Positions 4,566-62,715 of a DNA stretch of 64,000 nucleotides are shown here, piece after piece. The notes beneath the pieces are model-generated. The model was given only the letters and a program-made list of their open reading frames with translations, was not told the origin of the DNA and did no database searches. Each line of letters opens with the position of its first letter. The first letter of the stretch is position 1. Both the position numbers and the translations under genes were made by a program. The stretch comes from Berkelbacteria bacterium GW2011_GWE1_39_12 (GTDB lineage: Bacteria > Patescibacteriota > UBA1384 > UBA12157), in NCBI GenBank assembly GCA_001029735.1, contig CP011213.1, positions 591,929-655,928 on the forward strand, read 5' to 3'.

Positions 4566-5162
4566 ATGGGTGAAATACTAAATGAATCAGTTGGCCAGAT
4601 TACCACAAAGACCCTTAGCGATGTTGAACCGACTGCTTTTTGTAGCTCAACGATAATATTAAATCCTGAACATTTAAGAGAAGTAGTCGAGGAACCATTA
4701 ATTCCCGCTTGCGAAATTTTATACCAAAAAAATATCGAGACGGCAGATAGCTCTGCTAATAATAAAGATATCAGATCCGGTGGGGATGCGAGAATTTGTA
4801 TCAATTGGGATTCTTTATCTGAGGAAAACAGAAAAATTGTCGAAGGCTTGGGTTTGGAGCCTGTACCCTTTAATAATTTCCAGGTAGTAATATTACAAGA
4901 ACCGATTGAAGAAAAAACGACAGTTCAGGAGCTTTCAAACAAGTTCACAGAAAAAGCAAACATGTTCTTATTGCAAGAGCCAAAATGGATTCCAAGCTTT
5001 ACAATGGATGACTTAAGAAAAGAATATGGATATAGTGAAAGTGATGAGAGCACGCCAGAAGATTTTGAACAAGATTATTATGATCAAGAGTCAAAGAGAT
5101 TTTATTTGAGTGAAGATCATTATCGTAAAGTAAAGGAATGGGAAGATAGTCAAGTTAAATAA
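4566..5162 (+). CDS. hypothetical protein with acidic C-terminus
   Basis: Long ORF translationally coupled to comEA. I recognise no motifs. Confidence 0.4.
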   Translation: MGEILNESVGQITTKTLSDVEPTAFCSSTIILNPEHLREVVEEPLIPACEILYQKNIETADSSANNKDIRSGGDARICINWDSLSEENRKIVEGLGLEPVPFNNFQVVILQEPIEEKTTVQELSNKFTEKANMFLLQEPKWIPSFTMDDLRKEYGYSESDESTPEDFEQDYYDQESKRFYLSEDHYRKVKEWEDSQVK

Positions 5163-5691: not shown

Positions 5692-6090
5692 ATGAAAAAA
5701 ATAGCCAAGGTTAGTACCTTTTGGAAAATTGTTCTCTGTTTTAATATTGCCGAGATATTGATTTTTGTGTTTTCTAGAATTTCTTCGTTTATCGAGCCTC
5801 ATCTTTCTTTTCAAAATCAATTAAATTTGGATTCTATTGTTGGTACCTATTATTTTAGATTGAGTTTGGATGTTTTAATTTTAAATTTTATTTTTTTCTT
5901 TCTTTCAGTTTTGGGTATTTTTCTTACTTTTCAAAATAAGACCGCTGGTAAAATATTACTCGTAGTTTCTGGACTATTTTTTCTGATCAATAGCTTGCCG
6001 GATTTTTTAGGGTTAAATAATTTTCTGTTTTGTTTAATTTTAATTTTAATAACTTGTCTGATTATAAATAAATTTTCAAACGAGGTTTAA
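5692..6090 (+). CDS. hypothetical polytopic membrane protein
   Basis: The translation is dominated by hydrophobic helices, and an RBS-like GGAGGGG lies upstream. Confidence 0.4.
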   Translation: MKKIAKVSTFWKIVLCFNIAEILIFVFSRISSFIEPHLSFQNQLNLDSIVGTYYFRLSLDVLILNFIFFFLSVLGIFLTFQNKTAGKILLVVSGLFFLINSLPDFLGLNNFLFCLILILITCLIINKFSNEV

Positions 6091-6276: not shown

Positions 6277-8776
6277 CCTGCTAAAAAAACTAGCAACGAA
6301 TCGAGGTGGATTAACTGATCTTGAAGCGCAAAAACGCTTGCTTGAGAATGGACCAAATTCCATTTCGAGGCAAACTCCCATCCCGTTGCTTAAAATATTT
6401 TTAGATCAATTTCTTGATCTGTTGGTTTTAATGTTAATTTTTGCATGTGTTTTATCTTTTATGCTGGGTGACCTAAGAAATGGTGTTGTCATCGGTTTGA
6501 TTGTTGTCTTAAATGCCATTATAGGATTTGTACAAGAATATAAAGCTGAAAAAATTTTGAAGGCCTTGGTTAAATTATTGCCTGAAAAAGTTAAGGTCAA
6601 GCGTAATGGCGAAGAAAAAGAAATTTCCGCTGAATATTTAGCATTAGGCGATATTGTGGTTATTAATGAAGGCGACAAAATACCGGCCGATATCCGCGTG
6701 ATCGAAAGCTATGAATTGAGAATAAATGAGCAGATATTAACTGGAGAAGTTAATCCGCAAAATAAAGAGGCAAAGGATTATAAGGACGGGAATCTTTTAA
6801 TAACAGAAAGGCTAAATCTTTTATTTGCCGGCACAAATGCGGCTGACGGAGAAGCAATAGGTGTTGTTGTGGCTACTGGCCGCGCAACGGAATTTGGTAA
6901 AATCGCTCAAAAGACGATGCAAATCAATAAAGAGCACTCACCTTTGCAAGAAAAGACTCGTCAAGTCGCAAAAAAAATAGCTATCTTCGCCGCTATTTGG
7001 ATGATTGTTTTAATTTTTTACCATTTTTACTTTGTTAGCTCTAAAATTGTTGACGCTTTAATTTTCGCCGTGGTTGTTGCGGCAGCCTTGGTTCCAGAAG
7101 GGCTACCGGCAACTGTCTCAGTGGCTCTTTCATTCGGTGCTCGTAACTTGGCAAGAAATAAGGCATTGATTAAAAATTTGGTTTCTGTCGAAACATTAGG
7201 TTCAACGACGGTTATTTGTACTGATAAGACTGGGACTTTAACGACTGGTAAAATGACCGTTAGAGAAGTTTGGGAATTTGCCAATCCTGAAATTAATCCT
7301 GCGGAAAAAAAACAACTTATTCGTCAAGTTGCGATTTTATGTAATGACGCTGAGGTTGAGACGGATAATGCCGTTGGGGATCCGACTGAAATCGCTTTGC
7401 TCGAATGGGCTAAAAAGGAAGGCGTTGATGTTGCAGAATATCGAAAAAAATATTTGAAGATTGATGAATTGCCTTTTAATTCAAGACGTCGATTTATGAG
7501 TACAACGTACAATTTAAATGGCAATAAGTTTAATTGCGTTAAGGGTGCGCCAGAAATAATTGCCGAAAAATGCCATCTTAACGATGAAGAAAAATCGCAA
7601 ATAAATAAAAAAATGGAAGAATACGCTTCGGAAGGATATCGTGTTTTAGCTTTAGCCTATAACCATATTTTCTTGGGGTTAGTATCAATTTTTGATCCAC
7701 CAAGACCCGAAGTAAAAGAAGCAATCGAAAATTGCAAAAAGGGCGGTATTAGAGTTATTATGGTCACTGGTGACAATCCCTTAACAGCTGCATCAATTGG
7801 AAAAATAACAGGGATCACATATGACTCTTTTCCAGAAGTGATTGACGGAAAAAGTTTATCGAAAATGTCTGATCTGGAATTACGTCAAAAACTCCACCAT
7901 GTAAATATATTTGCCCGCATTCTACCAGAGCAAAAGTTTCGAATTGTCGATAATTTAATGAGTATGGGCGAAATAGTAGCGGCTACTGGTGATGGTGTAA
8001 ACGACGCTCCAGCTTTAAAAAAGGCTGATATCGGGATCGCGATGGGAATAACGGGGACCGATGTTTCCAAGCAAGCCGCTGATCTGATCTTGTTAGATGA
8101 TAACTTTGCAACTATTGTTAAAGCAGTAGTTGAAGGTAGAGTTATTTTTGATAATGTAAAGAGATTTCTTTTTTACATTTTTACTCATAATTTCGGAGAG
8201 TTAATGATTGTCGCCTTGGGTATCTTTTTCGGATTACCTTTGACTATGTTGCCGGTACAAATTCTAGCAGTCGATCTAGGTACTGATATCTTGCCATCGA
8301 TGTCTTTTATTGCGGAAAAAGAAGAAAATGTAATGTCTTCCAAACCCCGTTCCAAATCAGTTCAGTTGCTAAATTTAGAATCTTTTATACATCTTTCTCT
8401 TTTAGGAACCGTAGTTGGTTTTGGCGCAATCTGGAACTTTACCTCGGTTCTAAATACGACTGGAAATTATGCAGCTGCCACAACTGTTTCACTTAGTACT
8501 TTGGCGGTAGCCCAGGCGTTCAATGCCTTTTTAGCTCGGTGCCCTCATGTTTCAATTTTTAAGTATTCTTTTTGGTCGAATAAATATTTAATTGGTTCTG
8601 TTTTGATTTCATTGATTATATTATTGCTTATAGTTTATACTGAACCATTAAATAACTTTATCTTAACCAGCCCATTTCCTGCGGTATATTGGTTGAGAAT
8701 ATTGCTGGTAGGAATTGTATTTTTAATAGTCGAAGAACTTTATAAATTAATTAAGAAAAAACATGCAAGAGTATAA
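6236..8776 (+). CDS. P-type cation-transporting ATPase (type II, Ca2+/Mg2+-like)
   Basis: Phosphorylation motif 'DKTGTLT', 'TGDGVNDAPALKKADIGIAMG' and 'TGES'-like actuator motifs, with about 10 TM helices. GTG start with a strong upstream RBS GAGGAGGAAA. Confidence 0.85.
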   Translation: MEIPKNPWQGTSDDLLKKLATNRGGLTDLEAQKRLLENGPNSISRQTPIPLLKIFLDQFLDLLVLMLIFACVLSFMLGDLRNGVVIGLIVVLNAIIGFVQEYKAEKILKALVKLLPEKVKVKRNGEEKEISAEYLALGDIVVINEGDKIPADIRVIESYELRINEQILTGEVNPQNKEAKDYKDGNLLITERLNLLFAGTNAADGEAIGVVVATGRATEFGKIAQKTMQINKEHSPLQEKTRQVAKKIAIFAAIWMIVLIFYHFYFVSSKIVDALIFAVVVAAALVPEGLPATVSVALSFGARNLARNKALIKNLVSVETLGSTTVICTDKTGTLTTGKMTVREVWEFANPEINPAEKKQLIRQVAILCNDAEVETDNAVGDPTEIALLEWAKKEGVDVAEYRKKYLKIDELPFNSRRRFMSTTYNLNGNKFNCVKGAPEIIAEKCHLNDEEKSQINKKMEEYASEGYRVLALAYNHIFLGLVSIFDPPRPEVKEAIENCKKGGIRVIMVTGDNPLTAASIGKITGITYDSFPEVIDGKSLSKMSDLELRQKLHHVNIFARILPEQKFRIVDNLMSMGEIVAATGDGVNDAPALKKADIGIAMGITGTDVSKQAADLILLDDNFATIVKAVVEGRVIFDNVKRFLFYIFTHNFGELMIVALGIFFGLPLTMLPVQILAVDLGTDILPSMSFIAEKEENVMSSKPRSKSVQLLNLESFIHLSLLGTVVGFGAIWNFTSVLNTTGNYAAATTVSLSTLAVAQAFNAFLARCPHVSIFKYSFWSNKYLIGSVLISLIILLLIVYTEPLNNFILTSPFPAVYWLRILLVGIVFLIVEELYKLIKKKHARV

Positions 8777-59059: not shown

Positions 59060-60016
59060 ATGATTGTACTAAAATTTTTCAAACGGATCGGCCATGCTAT
59101 TCATAGGTTTATTAGACATTTACTTCCTCGTCTTAAGCCTCGTTTAAAAGTGGGCTGGATTGTCTCGGCCATCATATGGTTATTGGTTATTGTTTATCTA
59201 GTTTTTGGGATTCTAACCGCAGTCTGGGTTTATGCGGGAAAATCAGAATCAGGCTTAGTAAAAACAACTGTTAAATATTATCCTCTACCTGTTGCAACGA
59301 TAAATGGTCATTTTGTTTGGGCAAAAGATTATTATTGTCAGCTAGACTACATTAGACAGTTTTCCGTAAAGACAAAGCAACCTATCCCAAACGAGACTGC
59401 TTTAAGACAGCAAATTGTTGATCAACTAGTTGAAAATAAGACATTGGAGCTTCAGGCTACGCGCTACCACGTAAGAGTAAGTAGCAAAGATGTAAATGAT
59501 GCTTATCAGAAAATTGTTGATCAAGCCGGTGGTGTTTCAGAAGTTAAGAAAGTCCTAAGTGAGCTATATGGGATGAGTGAAAAGGACTTCAAGGAACTTG
59601 TAAGACAGCAAGTTCTAAAAGAGAAAATCCAAAATGAAGTTATTGCTCAAGTTCAGGTTTCCCATATTTTAATCAAAGATGAAGCTAGAGCAAATGATGT
59701 CGCAAATCAAGCCAAAAACAATGGTGATTTTGCTGCTTTGGCTAAGCAATATTCAGAAGATTCAAAGAGTAAAGATAACGGCGGCGAGCTTGGTTATTTG
59801 GCAAAAGGACAGCTTGTTGTTAATGATACGCCGATTCCCGAGTTTGATAACGCTGCTTTTTCCGCCAAAAAGGGTGATATTGTTGGTCCTGTAAAGACTT
59901 CGATTGGTTTTGAAATTATCAAGATCGAAGACAAAAAAGGTCAAATCTCAGACAGCTTTGATGCTTGGTTATCTGGAGTGAAAAAGACTTCAAAGATCTG
60001 GCGATTCATTAAATAA
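59060..60016 (+). CDS. parvulin-type peptidyl-prolyl cis-trans isomerase (PrsA/SurA-like), membrane-anchored
   Basis: N-terminal TM helix, a chaperone domain, and PpiC motifs 'VSHILIK...GGELGYLAKGQL...GPVKTSIGFEIIKIE'. Confidence 0.75.
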   Translation: MIVLKFFKRIGHAIHRFIRHLLPRLKPRLKVGWIVSAIIWLLVIVYLVFGILTAVWVYAGKSESGLVKTTVKYYPLPVATINGHFVWAKDYYCQLDYIRQFSVKTKQPIPNETALRQQIVDQLVENKTLELQATRYHVRVSSKDVNDAYQKIVDQAGGVSEVKKVLSELYGMSEKDFKELVRQQVLKEKIQNEVIAQVQVSHILIKDEARANDVANQAKNNGDFAALAKQYSEDSKSKDNGGELGYLAKGQLVVNDTPIPEFDNAAFSAKKGDIVGPVKTSIGFEIIKIEDKKGQISDSFDAWLSGVKKTSKIWRFIK

Positions 60017-60112: not shown

Positions 60113-60733
60113 CTAATTTTTCGTAAGCATCCCAGACCTTATTAGGGATTTCCTGGTAATTTGAAAACCTTTATTTGGATACTCTTTTATTCTTTGTAAA
60201 TCACCAACCATAATATTTATCGTCTGTTCTTTAGGAATTTTTGATTTTATCATATAATCTTCATAAGTTACCGGTGAAGATGTTACGATAAATTCTTTTT
60301 CAGGCCATTGTTTTTTAAATGTTGCGTAAGCTCTTCGTTCCATATATGGCTTTTGTACTAAAATGAATGAGCTTATATCCAATTGTCTTTCAGCCAAAAG
60401 CTTTTTAACAAAATTAATATTCTCGCTAGTATTGGATGCATTTGTTTCAAGAATTATTTTTTCTTTAGGAACACCTTTTTCTATGGCAATTTCAGATAGA
60501 ACTTCAGCTTCTGATTTGTTCCAACCTGTACTTAACAGATCATTATTATGGGCCATACCTCCAGAAAATATCATCAACGGAGCATATCCTTTCAAAAATA
60601 ATTCTGCAGCATATTCACCCACAGTTTTGTCGATGCTACCCAGTACAAAAATAGCACCAGCTTTTACTAGTGGTTGATTTAAATGATGATATTCCCAAAT
60701 AATCTTTCCTAACCTATCTATTTTTTCATGCAT
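60113..60733 (-). CDS. DUF218 / YdcF (ElyC/SanA-like) family protein
   Basis: 'AIFVLGSIDKTVGEYAAELFLKGYAPLMIFSGG' and '...ETNASNTSENINFVKKLL' fit the YdcF-family pattern. Confidence 0.6.
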   Translation of the reverse strand: MHEKIDRLGKIIWEYHHLNQPLVKAGAIFVLGSIDKTVGEYAAELFLKGYAPLMIFSGGMAHNNDLLSTGWNKSEAEVLSEIAIEKGVPKEKIILETNASNTSENINFVKKLLAERQLDISSFILVQKPYMERRAYATFKKQWPEKEFIVTSSPVTYEDYMIKSKIPKEQTINIMVGDLQRIKEYPNKGFQITRKSLIRSGMLTKN

Positions 60734-60792
60734 ACTGTGATTATATCAAAAAATAACCTCAAGTGTTATCTTCTTTGTTGGCGGTCATATGC

Positions 60793-60892
60793 CTAAGGGC
60801 GACCGGATTATATCGGAAAAGCAGAGGCGGTATTGGCCGAAGGACACAAAATACGAAAAAACACTCCTGAGTATTGAATTTCCAAGTGGCGG
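60793..60892 (+). repeat. direct repeat copy 1 (about 100 bp, about 88% identical to 61980-62082), ends with TGGCGG
   Basis: CTAAGGGCGACCGGATTATATCGGAAAAGCAGAGGCGGTATTGGCCGAAGG...GAATTTCCAAGTGGCGG aligns with the copy next to tRNA-Asp. Confidence 0.8.
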
Positions 60893-60973
60893 CTAATTGT
60901 AAATGATGTTTGAATTATTATGAGGAGAAATAATCATTCCCAAATTAGTTCCTACGGGAAATTATGTGACCGA

Positions 60974-61831
60974 TTAGGGCTGAATTAAAACCAGAGTTCT
61001 TTCTTTTCCATATTTTTCATAATCACCTTGAGCCATTTTCCCGTCTAATTCAAGGAGCTTTTCTCTGTTGGTTGAAACCAGTGAGTTTCTAAAATGAAGG
61101 TCTCCCAAAGCTTGGGCAAAGCCGTCACTATAAAAGAGTATGAAATCACTCGGATCTAAATTTTTAAAACCAGATTTAATAAATGGTTCAGCATTTTTTT
61201 CACCAGTTAAAGCTCCATAAGAAACAAGCTTACCATCAATAACTTTATTAGGATTGTTTCGATATTGTCTACGAATTTCCTTGCGTCTTTTAGGGTCAGA
61301 CCATTTCTCTTTGTGACTTTGTGTATAATGCAGAAAGTCTTCCAATCCATTAGGAGATTCAAATTTAATTTTACCAGTTTTATCTATAATCATTACTTGG
61401 CAATCACCAATCGATGCCCAGAATAATTTACCATCATAAATAAGTCCGCCCGAGGCCACGCAGGCGTAAAAATCATTTACCAAATAGTCGGGGTTAGGGT
61501 TATATTTTTTATTAAGTTCTGCAATTTTTTCATTAGCTGAACTGAAAGCACTTTTAACCGTGTTTTTATCTATAACTTTATTGTTTGTAAAGTCTAAAAA
61601 GCTTTTACAAAAGCAATCAGCTGCCATTTTAGCGGGGCTTGGGCTTGGATAATTTTTTAATAGTTGAATTATTGGTAAATCATTAAAATCACTTGGGCTT
61701 TTAGGATCCCGTGTAATTCCATCGGCAATACAAAAAATATTATCTCTTGTTCCGTAAGAATCTTCTTGTGGCTTTAGATTGCCGTACTTAACGTCATGTA
61801 AATATAATATTTCAATTTGTGGATTATTCAT
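60974..61831 (-). CDS. PP2C/SpoIIE-like serine phosphatase family protein (tentative)
   Basis: 'NIFCIADGITRD' and 'ILFYSDGFAQALGD' resemble PPM motifs. It sits between the two direct repeats. Confidence 0.4.
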   Translation of the reverse strand: MNNPQIEILYLHDVKYGNLKPQEDSYGTRDNIFCIADGITRDPKSPSDFNDLPIIQLLKNYPSPSPAKMAADCFCKSFLDFTNNKVIDKNTVKSAFSSANEKIAELNKKYNPNPDYLVNDFYACVASGGLIYDGKLFWASIGDCQVMIIDKTGKIKFESPNGLEDFLHYTQSHKEKWSDPKRRKEIRRQYRNNPNKVIDGKLVSYGALTGEKNAEPFIKSGFKNLDPSDFILFYSDGFAQALGDLHFRNSLVSTNREKLLELDGKMAQGDYEKYGKERTLVLIQP

Positions 61832-61979
61832 TGTATTTATTATATCATATAAGTTTTTTATTAATTTTAAGCATCTTAGGCCTAAAAAAGCCTAAATATT
61901 AAGTATAAAATTACTATCTCAAGCTTGTTTTTTTTGTGTTTAAAACCAACAAAAAATTGGGGACTATGGCGTCTACATA

Positions 61980-62082
61980 CTAAAGGCGACCGGATTCATT
62001 TCGGAAAAGCAGAGGCGGTATTGGCCGAAGGCCACCAAATACGAAAAAACACTACCTTAAGTAGTGAATTTCCAAATGGCGG
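61980..62082 (+). repeat. direct repeat copy 2, overlapping the last 6 nt of tRNA-Asp
   Basis: CTAAAGGCGACCGGATTCATTTCGGAAAAGCAGAGGCGGTATTGGCCGAAGG...GAATTTCCAAATGGCGG. Confidence 0.8.
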
Positions 62083-62154
62083 GCTCGACCGGATTCGAAC
62101 CGGCGATCTCCTCCGTGACAGGGAGGCGCTTTGAACCGGCTAAGCTACGAGCCC
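62077..62154 (-). tRNA. tRNA-Asp (anticodon GTC), CCA encoded
   Basis: Reverse complement reads GGGCTCG-TA-GCTT..AAGC-G-CCTCC-CTGTCAC-GGAGG-AGATC-GCCGGTTCGAATCCGGT-CGAGCCC-G-CCA. Confidence 0.8.
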
Positions 62155-62185
62155 GTACACAAATACAATCTATTCAATTTTACTT

Positions 62186-62272
62186 CGGGCTCTTGTTCTT
62201 TGCTGGTTCAAAGCAAGCTTTGAAACCGGTAGATCCTTCGGAATTCGTCAAAACCGAAAAAGCTACGAGCCC
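62186..62272 (-). pseudogene. degenerate tRNA-Asp-like copy adjacent to, and upstream in tRNA sense of, the intact tRNA-Asp
   Basis: It shares CGGGCTC, CTTTGAA(A)CCGG and AAGCTACGAGCCC with the tRNA, but the middle is replaced and expanded. Confidence 0.5.
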
Positions 62273-62373
62273 ATAATTTTCTCAGTTCAAGATAGATCAT
62301 ATCACAAAAAGACTATTATTTCAACTCTTATTCTTCCATTTTAAGGTTAAATTTGCTACAATCATGATATAAA

Positions 62374-62453
62374 GCGGGTATGGTTTAGTTCAGAACGTGA
62401 CCTTCCCAAATTTTGCGCAGGTATAGTTTAGTGGCAAAATGCGTCCTTCCCGG
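62374..62453 (+). pseudogene. two tandem degenerate 5' halves of tRNA-Gly(CCC) (acceptor-D arm-anticodon loop TTCCCAA/TTCCCGG)
   Basis: GCGGGTATGGTTTAGTTCAGAACGTGACCTTCCCAAA and GCGCAGGTATAGTTTAGTGGCAAAATGCGTCCTTCCCGGA. Compare the tRNA 5' half GCGGGATTAGTATAGTGGTAATATGTATCCTTCCCAAGG. Confidence 0.6.
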
Positions 62454-62463
62454 ATTTATTGGA

Positions 62464-62537
62464 GCGGGATTAGTATAGTGGTAATATGTATCCTTCCCAA
62501 GGATAAGATGCCAGTTCGATTCTGGTATCCCGCTCCA
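62464..62537 (+). tRNA. tRNA-Gly (anticodon CCC), CCA encoded
   Basis: Acceptor GCGGGAT pairs with ATCCCGC; anticodon stem TATCC/GGATA with loop TTCCCAA; T-arm GCCAGTTCGATTCTGGT. Confidence 0.8.
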
Positions 62538-62588
62538 ATAAATCTGCATGTAGGATGGTATGGCTTACCTGCTCCAGTAAAAATTTTC

Positions 62589-62663
62589 GCCCGGATAGCT
62601 CAGTGGTAGAGCAGTTCCTTCGTAAGGAAAAGGTCGGAGGTTCAAATCCTCTTCCGGGCTCCA
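62589..62663 (+). tRNA. tRNA-Thr (anticodon CGT), CCA encoded
   Basis: Acceptor GCCCGGA pairs with TCCGGGC; D-arm GCTCAGTGGTAGAGC; anticodon loop TTCGTAA; T-arm GGAGGTTCAAATCCTCT. Confidence 0.8.
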
Positions 62664-62681
62664 GCGAAAATTTAAAAGAAG

Positions 62682-62715
62682 AGGTCGGCAGTTCAAATCT
62701 GCCCATCGGCTCCCA
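62682..62715 (+). pseudogene. degenerate copy of the tRNA-Thr 3' portion (variable region, T-arm, acceptor)
   Basis: AGGTCGGCAGTTCAAATCTGCCCATCGGCTCCCA matches AGGTCGGAGGTTCAAATCCTCTTCCGGGCTCCA at the tRNA 3' end. Confidence 0.55.

Follow-up and report, generated by a model that had tools for sequence, protein, structure and literature searches.

How did a single phosphatase-like gene come to lie between two long direct repeats at a tRNA gene's 3′ end? The locus sits beside tRNA-Asp in a 64-kb stretch of DNA (hereafter the window, meaning the whole stretch that was analyzed) from the groundwater genome of Berkelbacteria bacterium GW2011_GWE1_39_12, a member of the candidate phyla radiation (CPR)/Patescibacteria. 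An initial annotation had read the arrangement as the footprint of site-specific integration at the tRNA, or of a tandem duplication seeded there. We find that the gene, which encodes a protein phosphatase 2C (PP2C)-like protein, represents a single-gene insertion, specific to this lineage, at a hotspot linked to the tRNA. Our favored account, to which we assign a probability of roughly 0.5, is that the repeats are the insertion scar of recombination targeted to the 3′-end region of tRNA-Asp, by a recombinase that acted in trans or has since been lost. Little is known about gene gain in the streamlined genomes of CPR/Patescibacteria, and this locus offers a clean, dated example.

Local alignment of the repeats at 60793-60892 (copy 1, distal to the tRNA) and 61980-62082 (copy 2, proximal) gave 103 columns with 93 identities (90%) and three 1-nt gaps (blastn E = 5e-33), which confirmed the coordinates first annotated and showed the accompanying estimate of about 88% identity to be slightly low. 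Weaker similarity extends about 13 nt more, to 60779 and 61967, and both copies finish in C(C)GCCA on the minus strand. Read on that strand, copy 1 starts with CCGCCA and ends in ..GACCGCCA, and copy 2 comprises the tip of tRNA-Asp, its trailer, and a terminal ..GACGCCA. On the plus strand, TGGCGG ends both copies; in copy 2 this hexamer is, as first annotated, the reverse complement of the CCGCCA end of tRNA-Asp, with 62077-62082 forming both the last 6 nt of the tRNA and the first 6 of the copy. At copy 1, the last two nucleotides of the adjoining spacer together with CCGCCA read AGCCGCCA (60887-60894), and alignment with the tRNA-Asp end, AGCC-GCCA against AGCCCGCCA, matches at 8/9 nt. No tRNA resemblance was found farther upstream of copy 1, and no anticodon- or T-loop-to-end fragment at that border. 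A central 31-nt block is identical between the copies; a 26-mer from it occurs exactly twice in the window against 0 expected, and a profile built from both copies found these two and no third copy in the 64 kb. Only 103-116 nt are duplicated. The approximately 1.09 kb between the copies is unique DNA, in which the PP2C open reading frame (ORF) is, as proposed, the sole gene, on the minus strand. A simple tandem duplication of the 1.19-kb segment is excluded, as the repeated part is only about 103 bp long. Every novelty junction in the window comes after a C(C)GCCA.

We then compared the locus with others from relatives, metagenomes, and genomes carrying PP2C homologs (compared loci and contigs bear L-numbers). 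With the 499-aa gene to the right of the tRNA cluster as anchor, five Berkelbacteria relatives were recovered (66-69% protein identity); with the DUF218 gene as anchor, the sister species L018 (82% identity); and a metagenome scan with the tRNA-Asp 3′ end gave 80 additional loci. All five relatives retain tRNA-Asp(-), tRNA-Gly-CCC(+), tRNA-Thr-CGT(+), a small membrane protein, and the 499-aa gene. In window orientation, the order is LytR-DUF5656-SurA / slot / tRNA-Asp(-), tRNA-Gly, tRNA-Thr, 108 aa, 499 aa. The frame of LytR-DUF5656-SurA(+) on one side and tRNA-Asp(-) on the other is conserved, and the content of the slot between them varies by genome. In L023, only 186 bp of gene-free DNA separate SurA from tRNA-Asp. 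In L024 (a complete chromosome, OY969116), the slot holds a beta-lactamase-like gene and an 83-aa GIY-YIG gene; the latter is flanked by a 74-nt direct repeat (80%), whose tRNA-proximal copy includes a displaced 3′ fragment of a different tRNA-Asp allele. In L021 and L022, a large serine recombinase of 542 or 544 aa (Resolvase + Recombinase + Zn_ribbon) converges on and overlaps the tRNA-Asp 3′ end, and another overlaps the 3′ half of tRNA-Asp in L106; small phage-like ORFs precede these recombinases (L021:2931-4559, L022:1946-3580, L106:1335-2918). L021 also has a GIY-YIG gene lying between the copies of an 18-nt direct repeat that is identical to tRNA-Asp positions 1-18 (4577-4919). In L018, DUF218 is followed by about 7 kb of unrelated genes, with no PP2C gene in the slot. 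Between two unrelated genes of L018, about 7 kb from DUF218 and with no tRNA in the 20 kb examined, lies an orphan AATCCGGTCGAGCCCGCCA (2858-2877; tRNA-Asp T-loop to CCA, identical to the tRNA of the window), a typical displaced fragment of the attachment (att) type. The slot downstream of tRNA-Asp is an insertion hotspot in Berkelbacteria.

None of the relatives compared has a PP2C gene in this slot, and the repeat unit was not found in any relative, any PP2C-homolog locus, or any of the 80 tRNA-Asp loci (profile search; blastn). The initial annotation had taken a two-repeat arrangement shared by all relatives as the mark of an ancient, immobile duplication; what the relatives have is neither the unit nor the gene. 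It had also looked to them for an empty site, and L023, with SurA and tRNA-Asp nearly adjoining, supplies one at the level of relatives. At the level of strains, neither an empty nor an excised variant was found among contigs with the exact flanking proteins, all of which have the same arrangement or are broken at the shared 31-mer. The window and L018 are homologous from DUF218 through its extended -10, and the similarity ends no more than about 20 nt from the end of copy 1. As DUF218 is common to both, it would be the older occupant of the slot, with the PP2C gene and both units specific to the lineage of the window.

The linkage of SurA, tRNA-Asp, and the 499-aa gene recurs even in distant phyla among the 80 metagenome loci, which suggests that direct adjacency of SurA and tRNA-Asp is ancestral. 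In L072, L104, L113, and L116, all GC-richer contigs, tRNA-Asp lies within a few kilobases of both a SurA-like gene and a gene homologous to that of the 499-aa membrane protein. Homologs of that protein also occur in representative genomes labelled Omnitrophota and Planctomycetia, an unexpectedly old micro-synteny.

The features of the slot and its borders are as follows.

59060-60016, plus strand: SurA-like peptidyl-prolyl isomerase, identified by Pfam and by synteny in L018, L023, L024, and distant phyla; left border of the variable slot.
60113-60733, minus strand: DUF218/YdcF-family gene (Pfam E = 1.6e-21) in the same slot, also present in L018.
60769 to 60740: promoter-like site of the DUF218 gene, by consensus match only.
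60779-60892, minus strand: repeat copy 1 (tRNA-distal), with its well-aligned core at 60793-60892 (nhmmer E = 1.7e-37).
60800-60809, minus strand: tRNA-Asp-like 10-mer AATCCGGTCG in copy 1 (shuffle test p ~0.015).
60856-60875, minus strand: apparently decayed terminator hairpin of copy 1, AAUACU-CAGG-AGUGUU followed by a U run.
60893-60973, minus strand: unique 81-nt spacer from the PP2C stop codon to copy 1, otherwise without tRNA similarity.
60974-61831, minus strand: cargo gene for a divergent PP2C/PPM-fold phosphatase of 285 aa.
61832-61966, minus strand: unique spacer upstream of the PP2C-like gene.
61922 to 61895: promoter-like site of the PP2C-like gene, by consensus match only.
61967-62082, minus strand: repeat copy 2 (tRNA-proximal), with its well-aligned core at 61980-62082 (nhmmer E = 2.7e-39).
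61987-61997, minus strand: GAATCCGGTCG in copy 2, equal to tRNA-Asp positions 59-69 (T-loop, T-stem, start of the acceptor; shuffle p ~0.007).
62044-62066, minus strand: intrinsic terminator of tRNA-Asp in copy 2, CACUAC-UUAAG-GUAGUG followed by U6.
62077-62154, minus strand: intact tRNA-Asp(GTC) with CCA encoded (ARAGORN; full-length match to the Rfam tRNA model, 69.8 bits).

DUF218 and PP2C, the variable-slot genes, are among the few minus-strand ORFs of the window and are co-oriented with tRNA-Asp. The window as a whole shows a strong strand bias, with nearly all of its 58 ORFs on the plus strand.

The repeat unit consists mostly of the tRNA-Asp trailer with its terminator. As it includes only 6-9 nt of the tRNA, it is not a classical displaced tRNA fragment. 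In copy 2, a strong hairpin and U6, textbook features of an intrinsic terminator, lie ten nucleotides past the CCA (-12.4 kcal/mol, z = -5.9) and were flagged by a terminator scan; the equivalent in copy 1 is a shifted, weak hairpin (-4.3 kcal/mol, z = -1.2) that the scan did not flag. A small GGCC-UUC-GGCC hairpin follows the terminator and is intact in copy 2 only. After it comes the stretch (G)AATCCGGTCG, which corresponds to tRNA-Asp positions 59-69 in the same orientation and begins at the same T-loop position as the orphan tRNA-Asp fragment of L018. This internal 11-mer is possibly a degenerate relic of an older displaced tRNA-Asp 3′ fragment, a suggestion that goes with tRNA-like 10-11-mers only moderately unlikely against shuffles (p ~0.007 and 0.015). 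As to present-day roles, copy 2 is the predicted transcription terminator of tRNA-Asp. Copy 1 appears to be a decaying duplicate, predicted at best to terminate the PP2C transcript weakly, and DUF218 and PP2C would each have a putative promoter of their own downstream of a repeat.

Next, we examined the cargo. The 285-aa protein falls below the Pfam gathering thresholds (PF00481, 16.1 vs 20.3 bits; PF13672, 15.8 vs 24 bits). Its family, however, comprises over 200 Patescibacteria proteins, and 27 of 30 sampled homologs match PF13672 (PP2C_2) at E <= 0.01, the best at 3.4e-9. Its AlphaFold2 model has a predicted local distance difference test score (pLDDT) of 91.4, and the top Foldseek matches are PstP, tPphA, MsPP, and Stp1 (probability 1.0, E down to 2e-12). 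Among the 30 homologs, residues E23, D24, D37 (>= 90%), G38, D42, D143, and D236-G237 are invariant or nearly so, and we take these acidic and glycine residues to be the PP2C metal-binding motifs (ED, DG.., GD, DG). Together, the homolog matches and the structural model confirm the cargo as a divergent subfamily of PP2C-fold phosphatases, and the tentative first annotation of the gene is borne out. A signalling-type phosphatase can thus be acquired as a single-gene islet.

PP2C homologs elsewhere were not found in IMG/VR or phage records, and no long flanking repeats surround those in other genomes, the nearest cases being, in L007, a 30-nt pair of borderline significance and, in L005, a fragment resembling tRNA-Glu. 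In L007, a 30-nt direct repeat of 83% identity (5957-5986 / 6849-6878) lies 15 nt before the start and directly after the stop of homolog P0008; it is borderline, may be a common upstream motif of two adjacent genes, and sits in an unrelated context. Homologs stand directly behind tRNAs at 3/9 loci, an enrichment that is not robust: P ranges from 0.008 to 0.08 with the choice of baseline, and the signal weakens further once the ascertained case is dropped. In L172:3211-3395, L173:252-436, and L174:3896-4001, the homologs lie 94 nt and 16 nt behind a co-oriented tRNA-Ser (GCT, CGA), and the L172 spacer terminates in CCTCTCCGC, which repeats that tRNA's 3′ end. The fragment in L005 (5076-5112) comes after the stop codon of a PP2C homolog that adjoins a tRNA-Glu/Lys/Arg cluster. 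About 3 kb from the same homolog are an RVT_1 reverse transcriptase fragment and bAvd (208-1170), hallmarks of a diversity-generating retroelement.

Under the account that we favor, the tRNA-Asp 3′-end region would have served as a recombination target, and some 1.09 kb (promoter, PP2C gene, and 81 nt) would have been placed between the tRNA trailer and the older DUF218 gene. Target sequence would then remain on both sides, like attL and attR, the two 103-bp repeats being versions of the last 6-9 nt of tRNA-Asp plus a trailer of about 100 nt. A shared segment, unique DNA, and the shared segment again, in direct orientation, argue for insertion through a shared target sequence. That this target was the tRNA-Asp end is suggested because the repeat starts in the last 6-9 nt of the tRNA, because the junctions follow C(C)GCCA, and because relatives have recombinases and displaced fragments at the same place. 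The agent was most likely a site-specific recombinase, acting in trans or since lost, as in relatives elements with a recombinase of their own make use of the same tRNA end.

Several observations weigh against this account. The tRNA share of the repeat is only 6-9 nt. The ten differences between the copies are scattered, with no sharp block of identity, a pattern that fits two diverged alleles and in-situ decay equally well. The GC content of the cassette (33-36%) is that of its surroundings, with no foreign base composition. As first annotated, no integrase was found in the cassette, nor among the 25 of the 58 window ORFs that were scanned, and viral contigs and phage records yielded neither an attP-like copy of the unit nor a PP2C homolog. 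The recombinases at tRNA-Asp of relatives are of the large serine type, a mismatch with 100-bp repeats: to our knowledge, such enzymes do not make long direct repeats and leave 2-bp identity only. Of the integration footprint first proposed, then, a lineage-specific insertion at a tRNA hotspot stands; that the event was site-specific, with 6-9 nt of tRNA in the repeat, has no more than the even odds given above.

The initial annotation had further suggested a decayed element or one mobilizable in trans. No further copy, no excised form, and no viral or plasmid counterpart was found in the 64 kb or in the collections searched, and nothing points to present mobility. Exact 22-25-mers of the unit had 0 matches in viral, representative-genome, and metagenome collections, a weak negative, as the source region is evidently not in them. 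Neither the L021-type recombinase nor the tRNA-Asp 3′ 20-mer was found in viral contigs. A transposon or miniature inverted-repeat transposable element (MITE) was rejected: the cassette has no terminal inverted repeats (the best inverted match of its ends is an A-rich 27-mer, score 20), and a 103-bp direct repeat is far longer than a target-site duplication. The structure is best read as a fixed scar that is now immobile.

Comparison with known systems helps to place the cassette. As in the tRNA-gene (tDNA) islands collected in Islander (PMC4383910), the insertion lies directly at a tRNA 3′ end, the tRNA is intact, direct repeats that include the tRNA end form the borders, and relatives lack the insert but have others at this tRNA. 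At the far border of a classical tDNA island lies a displaced fragment beginning in the anticodon or T-loop region (PMC4383910), whereas the 103-bp repeat here is mostly trailer. The cassette is also unlike such islands in lacking an integrase, in holding one gene in 1.2 kb where several kilobases are typical, and in having no compositional anomaly. By the features that Islander uses, it has the intact tRNA and the absence from relatives, and it lacks the integrase; as a candidate displaced fragment, the far border offers the 8/9-nt match to the tRNA end, the tRNA-like 10-11-mer lying inside the unit. Degraded ("grounded") islands and prophage remnants share with it an integrase-less state, att-like repeats, and a known integration hotspot. 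Here, though, no gene remnant of a phage or integrative and conjugative element (ICE) accompanies the housekeeping-type PP2C gene and the composition is native, so descent from a larger element cannot be shown. Campbell-type insertion would give the same order of shared segment, insert, and shared segment in direct orientation, but the circle that it requires, 1.19 kb long and bearing the unit, was not found; the analogy is formal only. Like integron cassettes, the locus has a single promoter-proximal ORF followed by a repeated element of about 100 nt, with two such gene-then-repeat units in a row; unlike them, it has no attC-like terminal inverted cores (the unit ends, CCGCCA and CGCCA, are direct), no IntI, and only two units. 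Integron cassettes, MITEs, and known RNAs were all tried, and none fits the feature. We class it as a minimal islet without an integrase, or an insertion scar, at a tRNA hotspot, of a known kind in a little-studied phylum. According to the Islander authors in 2014, tyrosine recombinases were the only ones known to target tDNAs (PMC4383910), and given that statement, the serine-recombinase elements at tRNA-Asp may merit a look.

The strongest alternative, which we regard as possible though less probable, dispenses with a site-specific recombinase. DNA from a related strain, with tRNA-Asp, trailer, and PP2C gene, would have entered by homologous or homology-facilitated illegitimate recombination, with the conserved tRNA as anchor, or by repair of a double-strand break made by a GIY-YIG homing endonuclease. 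One repeat would then be the donor's allele of the tRNA-Asp trailer and the other the recipient's. An integrase is not required, consistent with its absence, and the 10% divergence is spread along the repeat as for two alleles. The adjacent tRNA-Gly and tRNA-Thr loci are mosaic, with allele pieces matching other Berkelbacteria flanking the present genes, which argues that inter-lineage exchange at tRNA genes took place at this very locus. Precedent comes from SegB of phage T4, a GIY-YIG enzyme in a tRNA cluster, for which co-conversion of flanking DNA (PMC2330249) and segmental amplification (PMC13096335) are described. Homing cassettes of this sort are small, adjoin tRNA genes, and spread by break repair that co-converts or duplicates the flanks, and GIY-YIG genes beside tRNA-Asp with repeats derived from tRNA fragments occur in relatives (L021, L024; a further gene beside tRNA-Asp in L075). 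The window cassette, however, encodes no endonuclease, and there is no GIY-YIG gene in the slot of the window. The donor arrangement of tRNA-Asp, unit, and PP2C was not found in any locus searched. Homology-anchored exchange, as a general matter, usually replaces sequence rather than duplicating it, and random illegitimate joins do not predict that all junctions fall at C(C)GCCA.

The small GIY-YIG genes beside tRNA-Asp encode 83-90 aa (L021, L024:4233-4756, L075:9395-9739). In L024, tRNA-Asp alleles are nested (4661-5035, minus strand). An intact allele (allele B, GGACCGG...) is flanked by pieces of another (allele A, GGGGCCG...), with two 5′ pieces upstream and the T-arm and 3′ end downstream; the junctions share a recurring motif, C(T/C)TGCCCCGCA. 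A search for introns at this locus detected no known family.

A broader version holds that tRNA loci of Berkelbacteria and other CPR are remodelled by a recombinase-independent or unrecognized process that drops tiny cassettes at tRNAs and duplicates tRNA ends and trailers; homing-endonuclease-driven co-conversion may be an example. The cassettes may be single genes (PP2C-like, GIY-YIG) and even whole replacement tRNAs flanked by inverted repeats, and one mechanism may then unite the PP2C cassette, the nested tRNA-Gly/Thr alleles, and the PP2C homologs 16-94 nt behind tRNA-Ser. Because the enrichment statistics are weak and no agent was identified, we consider this unlikely.

We think it quite unlikely, too, that the arrangement arose locally with no mobility at all. 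Slippage or unequal exchange, for instance at the C(C)GCCA motifs, would have duplicated the trailer in place, and the PP2C gene would have arrived between the copies or been nearby already. The CCGCCA and C(C)GCCA that bound the unit might promote slippage, the composition of the cassette is native, and mobility genes are lacking. Two events would be required, however, a duplication and then an insertion exactly between the copies, since just 103-116 nt are duplicated around 1.09 kb of unique DNA. With PP2C absent from the slot in all relatives, an insertion is needed anyway.

It is very unlikely that the unit is a functional element selected in two copies, such as a small RNA, a leader or riboswitch of the two genes downstream, or a processing signal that resembles a tRNA and has GCCA at its end. 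The identical 31-nt block and the presence of a minus-strand gene downstream of each unit would suit such a role. Copy 2 folds slightly better than shuffles (z = -1.8 to -2.0), and the 3′ end of copy 1 can form a small helix followed by GCCA. Yet copy 1 as a whole folds no better than shuffles (z = +0.6 and -0.4), and two unit sequences give covariation analysis no power. A permissive search of both strands with Rfam 15 found no family for the unit, the best hit being HPnc0260 (35.8 bits vs a 59-bit threshold, driven by the tRNA), and only three tRNAs pass the Rfam thresholds in the region. The unit is moreover absent from relatives, PP2C-homolog loci, and the 80 tRNA-Asp loci, and the promoter-like sites of both genes lie downstream of the units. 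A shared ORF was excluded by stop codons and the three 1-nt indels between the copies.

Finally, we give practically no credence to an assembly artefact, whether a collapsed or a chimeric repeat: several short-read assemblies do break or turn chimeric here, but the breaks tend to fall exactly at the sole shared 31-mer, as expected for k=31 assembly graphs (which accounts for contigs L004 and L012), and contigs assembled independently from different samples, among them ones of 33 kb, 342 kb, and 915 kb, span both repeats. Two apparent variants were discarded. L004 (1,217 bp, with repeat halves at both ends) might be taken for a circle; it equals a unitig of the k=31 graph and is no evidence for one. 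L002, an apparent tRNA-Met + tRNA-Asp variant, is an assembly chimera inside the tRNA body, in which the acceptor strands do not pair: at positions 1-260, a foreign tRNA-Met and tRNA-Asp 5′ part (acceptor GCGGGCG) are joined to the tRNA-Asp 3′ part of this genome. L003:1-70 is likewise chimeric, inside a tRNA-Gly. Such contigs call for caution in context analysis around conserved tRNAs.

As a scar, the structure is ordinary; it is useful chiefly as an anchor from which to study gene flux linked to tRNAs in CPR, and because it points to the stranger mosaic tRNAs beside it. The adjoining tRNA-Gly/Thr "fragment graveyard" is odder than the repeats. Directly upstream of tRNA-Asp lies a pseudo-tRNA (62185-62275, minus strand; -34 kcal/mol) that ARAGORN and Rfam do not call. 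It begins with the same 13 nt as tRNA-Asp, but a long hairpin replaces the D-loop; an anticodon-like hairpin (loop UUGAACC) and a GAGCCC 3′ strand are present, and a T-arm is missing. The tRNA-Gly(CCC) locus (62374-62576, plus strand) is nested. An intact tRNA-Gly (62464-62537, 45% GC) occupies the middle; before it, 62417-62451 is 97% identical to positions 2-36 of the L021 tRNA-Gly, a 5′ half ending in the anticodon loop, and a further tRNA-Gly 5′ half lies at ~62374-62409. A matching tRNA-Gly 3′ end, TACCTGCT(CCA), follows at ~62565-62576. These pieces give the impression that an older tRNA-Gly gene received a complete cognate tRNA gene as an insertion.

Directly behind the present tRNA-Thr (62589-62663), whose acceptor stem differs, 28 nt at 62686-62713 (plus strand) are 93% identical to the 3′ end (positions 46-73) of an L021/L024-type tRNA-Thr, and are a displaced piece of an older tRNA-Thr allele. 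Complementarity between leader and trailer also extends the acceptor stems of these genes, by 11 bp for tRNA-Gly, where it forms an 18-nt perfect inverted repeat (62453-62470 / 62527-62544), and by 8 bp for tRNA-Thr (62577-62685), against at most 5 bp for the nine other tRNAs of the window. These stem-extending repeats may serve as a signal for processing or mark where a mobile unit ends.

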